DNA of 18,284 nt from a virus (taxonomy: Duplodnaviria; Heunggongvirae; Uroviricota; Caudoviricetes): the IMG/VR virus record IMGVR_UViG_2534681673_000003, positions 1-18,284 of that record; one strand, written 5' to 3'. Below are positions 12,883-13,723 of the stretch, piece by piece. The position numbers and the translations under genes are program-made. The notes under the pieces are model-generated. The model ran no database searches. It was not told the origin of the DNA and saw nothing but the letters and a program-made list of their open reading frames with translations. Numbering within the stretch: the stretch's first letter is position 1; each line of letters starts with the position of its first letter.

Positions 12883-13374
12883 CTACAGATTGCCGTTCAG
12901 TTTTCTGGCCAACTCCTCAATAGATGGAGGCGATACATAATCCGGATTTTTATTCATAAGAAACTGATTTTCACAGTAGAGGCACCTGCTTTTATGAAAA
13001 AACTCATATTCTCTAACCGGGAATGGTTGAAGTATCGATACTATCTTTTGTCCAAAACATTTTGGACAAAGATGCATGATTATGCTGCCGCCGTTCACGG
13101 TTACCTCCTTCGAGTACACAAAAGTTCCCGACTCAAGTTGGTTAAGGATATAACCTTCCGTCTGAGCCTCAAAGTTTTCAAATTCTGCAATTTTAGCTTT
13201 GAGAGAAGCATTTATTTCTTGATAAGTGCTCACCAGCTCAACGAGAGACACGCATTCGTGCTGAATAGATGCAAGCTTTGAGTTCAGTTCACCAATAGCC
13301 GCATTTACTTCAGCTTGAGTTTTTGCCTCGTTCATTAGTTTTGCAATCTGAGCGGTTTCACGAATAGCCGTCAT
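12883..13374 (-). CDS. Hypothetical coiled-coil protein with C-terminal Cys4 zinc ribbon (163 aa)
   Basis: ATG at 13374 (the ORF-track start at 13440 is TTG). N-terminal half has alanine/glutamate-rich heptad-like sequence (AELTAAMTAIRETAQIAKLMNEAKTQAEVNAAIGELNSKLASIQ...); C-terminal CPKCF...CLYCEN. AT-rich; convergent with the pL operon. Confidence 0.6.
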   Translation of the reverse strand: MTAIRETAQIAKLMNEAKTQAEVNAAIGELNSKLASIQHECVSLVELVSTYQEINASLKAKIAEFENFEAQTEGYILNQLESGTFVYSKEVTVNGGSIIMHLCPKCFGQKIVSILQPFPVREYEFFHKSRCLYCENQFLMNKNPDYVSPPSIEELARKLNGNL

Positions 13375-13412
13375 TGCTGCCGTTAATTCAGCGATCACAT
13401 TCAATACTCTTA

Positions 13413-13458
13413 TTGTTGTTGGGGATATCCAGATTAACAAGATCCTTGTTGTTGGGGA
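13413..13458. repeat. Two copies of 13-bp direct repeat TTGTTGTTGGGGA, 33 bp apart
   Basis: Copies at 13413-13425 and 13446-13458, 40-85 bp upstream of the 163-aa minus-strand gene start. Confidence 0.5.
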
Positions 13459-13723
13459 ATAACAGGTCCACCTCGCCTGACGTGGTTAAAAGCAGGCACA
13501 CAACACGAAAGCGCTCGGCGAAGTTAGTCTCTCTGTATATGTCGTCGTTAAATGTAATTCGATCGTGCGCTTCCGGTTGTGGCAATCCGCGAAATGGCGC
13601 GGCGGTAAGTATGGCTGGGGCTTCCTCCATTGCTCCAGAAAATGCACCGGGTTGTCAGGTTGACCATACGCCTGAGTGACAACACCGCCACAACAACCTC
13701 TGTTATCACTTTTCTGGTGATTC

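Follow-up and report, generated by a model that had tools for sequence, protein, structure and literature searches.

In an 18,284-nucleotide (nt) stretch of DNA from a Caudoviricetes virus (IMG/VR record IMGVR_UViG_2534681673_000003, positions 1 to 18,284; this whole stretch is referred to as the window), a minus-strand gene beside the cI-type repressor gene encodes a protein that is almost certainly a divergent member of the Rip1 family and not a new system. Based on the comparisons reported here, we suggest that this protein probably functions as a lysogen-expressed abortive-infection defense, in which a ring-shaped protein of an infecting phage triggers the formation of a pore. A preliminary description of this DNA, made from the sequence alone, had recognized no family for the protein; the family to which it belongs is already known. 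The coding sequence is as follows.

12883-13398, minus strand: rip1-like coding sequence of 171 amino acids with a GTG start at 13398, found as an open reading frame (ORF) and annotated by the Prokaryotic Genome Annotation Pipeline (PGAP) as WP_000559919.1, 'hypothetical protein'

The primary description of Rip1 is reportedly that of Patel, McCarthy, Taylor et al. (Nature 651:1060, 2026). In the passages devoted to it in a secondary summary, Rip1 is presented as a prophage-encoded antiphage protein that is non-toxic alone (PMC13434031). The corresponding passages of three such summaries state that escape mutations lie in the portal protein for phages of Pseudomonas and the small terminase for those of E. 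coli, that 12 Rip1 monomers encircle the 11-mer small-terminase ring, that the C-terminal half contacts the ring while the N-terminal amphipathic helices make the pore, and that relatives are widespread in proteobacteria, chiefly in prophages (PMC13434031, PMC12908700, PMC13601566). As summarized in one of them, the pore releases dye from liposomes and leaves holes in cells, infection is aborted late with premature lysis, and the original gene is flanked by the genes for the small and the large terminase in a prophage of P. aeruginosa (PMC13434031).

Several comparisons link the window protein to Rip1. A profile of 55 homologues matched the PDB chain 9oox_L, 'ring interacting pore 1 (Rip1)', with an expect value (E) of 4.7e-23, the next match having E=0.23; the alignment spans profile positions 6-156 and chain residues 16-160, i.e. 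the similarity to a characterized Rip1 is nearly full-length. Entry 9oox is titled 'Escherichia phage HK446 Rip1 in complex with the Enterobacteria phage T6 small terminase', and the single window sequence also reaches it by phmmer (E=1.4e-7). The check by AlphaFold2 (AF2) and Foldseek that the preliminary description had called for gave 9oox_M and 9oox_L as the top two matches (E=5.9e-7, probability 1.00, template modeling score 0.72 when normalized to the target), and beyond 9oox there was no match below E=0.2. The protein is thus modeled with the fold of the solved Rip1 protomer, and in the model this fold accounts for all 171 residues. At the level of phage protein families, the window protein matches phrog_1244 ('unknown function') with E=2.9e-56, and this family is common to the window protein, HK446 Rip1, HkaP of HK620 and gp30 of JBD30 (E 8e-51 to 3e-61). 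By BLASTP, identity is 27% to HK446 gp37 (E=3e-13) and 30% to JBD30 gp30 (E=1e-20), while tblastn against phage genomes returned HK620 HkaP, HK629 and HK630 at 30%, HK446 gp37 at 27%, and the Pseudomonas Mu-like phages DMS3, JBD30, D3112 and MP38 at 30% identity. Nine residues (Y83, V94, Y95, C111, C114, I122, Q124, C139 and C142) are invariant in all four lineages. Because an exhaustive profile search matched 3194 representatives of 50%-identity clusters at E<=1e-3 (1654 at E<=1e-10), the superfamily is large. A word-indexed search returned 119 homologue clusters, nearly all from Enterobacterales prophages and none named beyond 'hypothetical protein'. In Pfam, NCBIfam and PADLOC, there was no significant family for the window protein, only weak coiled-coil noise; PADLOC, another check called for at the outset, was searched in its 2023 version, which predates Rip1 and holds no model for the family.

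The architecture of the protein is also that of Rip1. The AF2 model (mean predicted local distance difference test score 91.6, predicted template modeling score 0.65) and the alignments define the following elements.

Residues 1-79: helical hairpin (helices 2-24 and 28-79) in the AF2 model
Residues 80-150: beta-rich domain with a predicted Cys4 zinc ribbon, from the AF2 model and the alignment
13066-13068, minus strand: zinc-ribbon residue C111
13057-13059, minus strand: zinc-ribbon residue C114
12982-12984, minus strand: zinc-ribbon residue C139
12973-12975, minus strand: zinc-ribbon residue C142
Residues 126-138: hypervariable insert between the zinc knuckles, from entropy by region
Residues 151-171: variable C-terminal tail, from entropy by region

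The N-terminal helices are amphipathic, with a hydrophobic moment of 0.44 compared to 0.42 for HK446 Rip1, and no transmembrane helix was found in the window protein (maximal 19-residue Kyte-Doolittle mean of 1.13). They are followed by a C-terminal domain with four conserved Cys residues that are predicted to bind zinc; C111, C114, C139, C142, G91 and Y95 are invariant across the 55 homologues. The Ala/Glu/Lys-rich helical N-terminal half and the C-terminal CPKC...CLYC motif that the preliminary description had pointed out are therefore both present. In the subfamily alignment, the insert at residues 126-138, which ranges from 9 to 18 residues in length, and the C-terminal tail have entropies of 2.45-2.47 bits versus 1.1-1.4 bits elsewhere. 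Because the C-terminal half of Rip1 touches the trigger ring and the insert is highly variable, we propose that the insert may act as a specificity loop and, together with the variable tail, may determine which trigger is recognized.

The ORF ending at 12883 is a real gene, being supported by the ORF list, the PGAP coding sequence and the homologues. The start originally assigned to it, ATG 13374 with a product of 163 amino acids, is too far downstream, and the 171-residue form starting at GTG 13398, which is also the PGAP call, is the true one: the eight additional N-terminal residues, MIAELTAA, are conserved in the 55-homologue alignment and ATG 13374 is, therefore, an internal Met. In keeping with this, the alignment of the 163-residue form to phrog_1244 begins only at profile position 9. 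The gene is AT-rich and convergent with the early-left operon, as had been stated; its GC content is 41.3% as opposed to 49.0% for the window, only 3.4% of 516-nt windows being as low, and it is encoded opposite to the pL operon, with 540 nt separating it from the end of cI. An 80-residue ORF (13388-13630, minus strand), put forward as a possible second gene just upstream, exists mechanically and is not a gene. It overlaps the true GTG start and straddles the recombination junction of the cassette at 13487, is cut short in a sister prophage of O157:H7 and frameshifted in CFT073 (loci L013 and L014, respectively), has no annotation in the source genome, and matches no family in Pfam, PHROGs, NCBIfam or PADLOC. 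Of the 25 matches listed for the backbone beneath it, from a search that matched 4742 E. coli genomes, 24 are free of any annotated gene and the remaining one has a 'hypothetical protein'. A 156-residue ORF (13548-14018) was likewise rejected as a gene, there being no family match in the same four collections.

The gene is a single prophage-encoded gene. Because the window holds stx2A and stx2B (Stx2a) and three tRNA genes, its setting is a Shiga-toxin-converting prophage, and the window is an Stx2a-converting lambdoid prophage; over its whole length it is 99.989% identical to the chromosome of E. coli JNE151685 (NZ_AP027258.1, 1216707-1234992, reverse strand). The features that frame the rip1-like gene here are the following.

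11699-12343, plus strand: cI-type repressor gene (Pfam HTH_3 and Peptidase_S24; PGAP 'LexA family protein'), tail-to-tail with the rip1-like gene
12413-12441, plus strand: pL-like early-left promoter (TTGACA, 17 nt, TATATT; 11/12 matches in the promoter scan)
12617-12769, plus strand: DUF1391 (ydfA-like) gene (PF07151, E=5e-30), which opens the early-left operon and runs convergent to the rip1-like gene
12771-13487: inserted cassette, from blastn against the sister prophage of O157:H7 7386WT (L013), 717 nt here versus 42 nt there

The O157:H7 7386WT prophage is homologous to the window on both sides of the insertion (12300-12770 and 13488-14400, 86-89% identity), and the unrelated phage PhiR49_1 (L005) shares only 12846-13505 with it, at 94.6% identity by blastn. 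Together, these limits define a discrete cassette of about 0.66-0.72 kb, which is present at a coverage of at least 80% in 648 of 5426 complete E. coli genomes (about 12%), including O157:H7 at 97.7% identity, and in every full-length match among the matches listed the gene is annotated as 'hypothetical protein'. The homologues also lie in prophage immunity regions. In Klebsiella and Citrobacter prophages, the homologue is tail-to-tail with an S24 repressor gene and runs antisense to the early-left genes; the homologue of an Edwardsiella prophage is antisense to the RecT and exonuclease VIII genes of the early-left operon and near an N-like gene, and no repressor gene was seen within the stretch examined; and HK446 rip1 and HK620 hkaP are antisense in the pL operon, directly downstream of N. 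JBD30 gp30 lies antisense between genes annotated 'DNA binding protein' and 'terminase large subunit', which fits the site between the terminase subunits given for the original Rip1 gene in the passage cited above (PMC13434031). Two side observations concern these loci. In the Edwardsiella locus (L010, 4962-6279), two more genes on the same strand, encoding 228 and 175 amino acids and without a Pfam match, follow the rip1-like gene before the N-like gene and may be extra cargo in the same slot. In PhiR49_1 (L005, 3788-4516), the deposited rip1-like ORF is stretched upstream to 242 amino acids, and cluster P0025 (243 amino acids) looks similar; because the conserved promoter and leader fall inside the extension, its start is probably over-called.

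A promoter and leader region related to that of sieB travels with the gene. Its elements, all on the strand of the gene, are as follows.

13399-13505, minus strand: sieB-type promoter and leader, 107 nt, from alignment and blastn
about 13475-13496, minus strand: conserved upstream hairpin GCCTG...CAGGC
13456-13461, minus strand: -35 equivalent TATTCC, predicted by alignment to P22
13431-13436, minus strand: -10 equivalent TAATCT, predicted by alignment to P22, with a spacer of 19 nt
near 13424, minus strand: transcription start, predicted by alignment to P22
13407-13411, minus strand: Shine-Dalgarno sequence AAGAG

By blastn, the leader matches the P22 feature annotated 'sieB: promoter' (promoter 29690-29720, RNA start 29727 in the P22 annotation), with 72% identity over 95 columns and a z-score of 18 against shuffled sequences; the HK446 leader is 87% identical to that of P22. 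The leader is 85% identical in a Klebsiella locus even though the proteins are just 49-51% identical, and its conserved blocks recur in loci with proteins of 43-58% identity. Rfam has no match in the gene or the leader. A weak candidate, TTGTTA/AACAAT, came up in a relaxed promoter scan; it was found only in this window, and the alignment to the promoter mapped for P22 sieB was preferred to it. Because the leader is homologous to this mapped promoter, the gene, antisense in the early-left operon and with its own promoter, occupies the sieB slot itself as a different, Rip1-type cargo. The preliminary description had placed the gene among lysogen-expressed exclusion or abortive-infection cargos of the rexAB and sieB kind, and membership in the Rip1 family and the homology of the promoter lend support to this placement.

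Carrying over to the window protein what is reported for Rip1 leads to the following model. In the lysogen, the sieB-type promoter would provide a low level of the protein, which would be harmless. Once a second phage has infected and its late genes are expressed, the ring formed by its small terminase or portal would serve as the scaffold, around which about twelve C-terminal zinc-ribbon domains would bind. The N-terminal amphipathic helices would thereby be gathered into a membrane pore that would kill or prematurely lyse the cell before progeny are complete. Because pL transcripts would cross the gene antisense, induction of the prophage itself would damp its expression, convergent transcription from pL silencing the rip1-like gene.

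Several points weigh against this model. The properties of the Rip1 family are taken from passages in secondary summaries (PMC13434031, PMC12908700, PMC13601566). Identity to characterized Rip1 proteins is only 27-30% and, therefore, the trigger and even the output could differ; moreover, a literature search returned no phenotype data for WP_000559919.1 or HkaP and no experiments on this subfamily. The amphipathicity of the N-terminal region is modest, and the AF2 monomer is a closed helical hairpin that is uninformative on the pore state. Regarding expression, the sieB-type -35 and -10 equivalents are poor matches to the consensus, a consensus sigma-70 scan found no promoter on the strand of the gene, and the native intrinsic terminator of other loci is missing in the window.

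A Rip1 homologue might alternatively have been co-opted by its own prophage, such that it senses the terminase or portal ring of the Stx2a phage itself and times or accelerates lysis and toxin release. The location of the gene in an Stx2a-converting prophage, the frequency of the cassette in Shiga toxin-producing E. coli (STEC) including O157:H7, the premature lysis attributed to Rip1 pores in the summary cited above (PMC13434031) and the lack of an own terminator for the gene in the window would all fit. However, the orientation antisense to pL suggests that the gene should be damped upon induction, the same source describes the characterized Rip1 as non-toxic alone and as acting on heterologous phages (PMC13434031), and many prophages without Stx in Klebsiella, Citrobacter and Edwardsiella have the same cassette; altogether, we consider this explanation improbable. 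The combination of a coiled coil and a zinc ribbon would also be expected of a regulator or chaperone of the CT398/HP0958 (FlgZ) type, which would bind RNA or a sigma factor or regulate the immunity region; the window protein did not belong to the CT398 or HP0958 sequence families when this was tested, and we regard this explanation as very improbable. Finally, a SieB-like membrane protein for superinfection exclusion, for which the shared slot, the promoter region homologous to that of P22 sieB and the annotation of HK620 hkaP as 'putative superinfection exclusion protein' would speak, is scarcely credible, as P22 SieB belongs to phrog_1301 and phrog_6399 and not to phrog_1244, the window protein matches no SieB family in Pfam or PHROGs, it has no hydrophobic transmembrane segment (maximal Kyte-Doolittle mean 1.13), and identity with SieB is thus refuted at the level of protein homology. 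We therefore retain the ring-triggered, pore-forming Rip1-type defense as the most probable function of the window protein.

The flanks of the gene contain additional conserved elements.

13413-13425 and 13446-13458, minus strand: 13-nt direct repeat in two identical copies (TCCCCAACAACAA as read on the gene strand) spaced 33 nt apart, from a repeat search
12846-12882: 3' flank of the cassette
12846-12857, plus strand (the pL strand): exact boxA-like element GCTCTTTAACAA, a 12-mer for which 0.002 occurrences are expected by chance
12856-12881 and 13410-13435: arms of a 26-nt imperfect inverted repeat, 81% complementary, that bracket the ORF

The TCCCCAACAACAA repeats overlap the -35 equivalent and the predicted transcription start, and in P22, HK446 and HK620 a different sequence, ACCCCTACAG, occurs twice at the two equivalent places; the positions compared were 13413-13458 (minus strand) in the window, 1243-1290 in locus L028 and 3370-3425 in locus L002. 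That both copies change together between lineages suggests a shared binding factor with lineage-specific recognition, for which the repeats are candidate sites. The element GCTCTTTAACAA, with which the cassette begins on the pL strand and which we take to be a boxA of the rrn, phage 21 and P22 type, is preceded on the early-left transcript by a hairpin (12819-12844), in a prophage without a recognizable N gene; a search of the window allowing up to 2 mismatches gave no second copy. On the 3' side of the gene, the loci of Klebsiella and Citrobacter and 10 others have kept GGATATCCAGATTGTTAAAGAGC behind the stop codon, and in other loci the boxA-like element sits between the stop codon and an intrinsic terminator. 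Pairing between the 5' and 3' untranslated regions of the RNA through the inverted repeat that flanks the ORF was considered and rejected, because there are no compensatory substitutions in 12 other loci and because the predicted transcription start is also downstream of the 5' arm.

These elements invite a broader and rather doubtful speculation, namely that the enterobacterial sieB slot is a conserved, swappable defense socket. Its components would be a shared promoter bearing the two co-varying repeats of 13 nt, a hairpin upstream and a 3' joint that includes the boxA, between which unrelated abortive-infection cargos of the SieB or Rip1 kind would be exchanged; the Rip1 subfamily of the window would have a trigger specificity of its own through the hypervariable insert, a regulator would act on the repeats, and Stx2a lysis and toxin release might possibly be modulated.

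Among the known systems closest to the window gene is HK446 Rip1 (gp37; 9oox). The window protein and HK446 Rip1, of 171 and 164 amino acids, respectively, share an N-terminal helical half, a beta domain at the C-terminus that bears a CxxC...CxxC zinc ribbon, phrog_1244 and the Foldseek fold, and both are encoded by lambdoid E. coli phage genes that are antisense in the pL operon and have a sieB-type leader. By contrast, the window protein, at 27% identity, has a shorter N-terminus, a different zinc-knuckle insert and about 20 additional residues that form a helical C-terminal tail, and its gene comes after a DUF1391 gene, in a Qin-like early-left operon that has dicB and no N, while HK446 rip1 follows N. 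The Rip1-type proteins of Pseudomonas casadabanviruses (JBD30 gp30, DMS3, D3112 orf25, MP38 ORF25) resemble the window protein in identity (30%, E=1e-20) and PHROG, and are likewise each the product of a single gene that runs opposite to its neighbors; they differ in their slot, which is between a terS-like gene and terL in the late operon and not beside the repressor gene, and in lacking a sieB-type leader (z-score about 0). SieB of P22, lambda and Rac is encoded in the slot that the window gene occupies, near the repressor gene and N and antisense in the early-left operon, behind a homologous promoter and leader (72% over 95 nt). SieB is reported to be expressed in lysogens, with an outcome of the abortive-infection type (Susskind et al., 1974; Ranade & Poteete, 1993). 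The P22 SieB protein itself is unrelated (phrog_1301 versus phrog_1244), and no transmembrane segment was found in the window protein.

A conceptual parallel is provided by RAZR (ring-activated zinc-finger RNase; Zhang et al., Nature 2026), a zinc-finger defense protein that polymerizes around phage rings such as the portal and has a HEPN RNase as its effector (PMC13017515). Both would be small zinc-finger defense proteins acting on ring-shaped phage proteins; unlike in RAZR, the effector expected in the window protein is a pore-forming helical region. No HEPN RNase domain was found in the window protein in Pfam or PDB searches, and the 13 weak matches of the PDB profile search beyond Rip1 (E 0.23-6) include none named RAZR or RNase. 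Rip1 goes unmentioned in the RAZR paper (PMC13017515).

The analysis proposes a function for a gene that goes under the label 'hypothetical protein' and occurs in about 12% of the complete E. coli genomes, O157:H7 among them. Were the protein active, Stx prophages would shield their STEC hosts from other phages by means of a pore that senses late infection, which, if true, bears on the phage therapy and biocontrol of STEC and on how prophages compete. At least two defense cargos that are unrelated to each other are carried by the sieB slot and its promoter, both known for a long time. The hypervariable insert is a concrete candidate region for trigger specificity, and both the insert and the promoter repeats are testable.

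The remaining features of the window are those of an Stx2a-converting lambdoid prophage, which also has a Q-type antiterminator gene and replication genes.

621-890, minus strand: stx2B
902-1861, minus strand: stx2A
1957-2205, minus strand: three tRNA genes upstream of stx2 (stx2A and stx2B together spanning 621-1861, minus strand)
11372-11599, minus strand: cro-like gene
13927-14115, plus strand: dicB, in the early-left operon

The pL-like promoter is flanked by 18-nt operator-like direct repeats, as found in the repeat search, and the early-left operon, on the plus strand beyond cI, is Qin-like, with dicB and without an N gene; further on, it contains a DUF1482 gene, a gene for an 823-residue exonuclease, xis and int. 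Two small RNAs were matched by Rfam near other genes of the window: STnc100 (158 bits; 335-547, minus strand), directly downstream of stx2B, and the sok antitoxin RNA (113 bits; 6723-6897, minus strand), which adjoins a Hok/Gef family gene and with it makes up a hok/sok toxin-antitoxin module in this Stx2a prophage.

The segment upstream of dicB (13488-13926, 440 nt) is homologous to the intergenic region between ydfC and dicB of Qin, with homologues in 4742 of the 5426 complete E. coli genomes at up to 10 copies each. It contains a variant of the DicF small RNA, TTTCTGGTGATTCGGCGGAAATGGATATCCGCCATTTTT (13711-13749, plus strand), the 5' part of which, UUCUGGUGA, is as in K-12 DicF, while the body is a different, shorter terminator hairpin; the variant lies 215 nt upstream of dicB versus 226 nt in K-12. 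The Rfam DicF model matches Qin and CFT073 (76.7 bits) and gives no match in the window or in the O157 sister prophage. A weak STnc100-like match (13742-13959) scores 31 bits, under the gathering score, and a 19-nt inverted repeat within the segment has its arms at 13754-13772 and 13891-13909.

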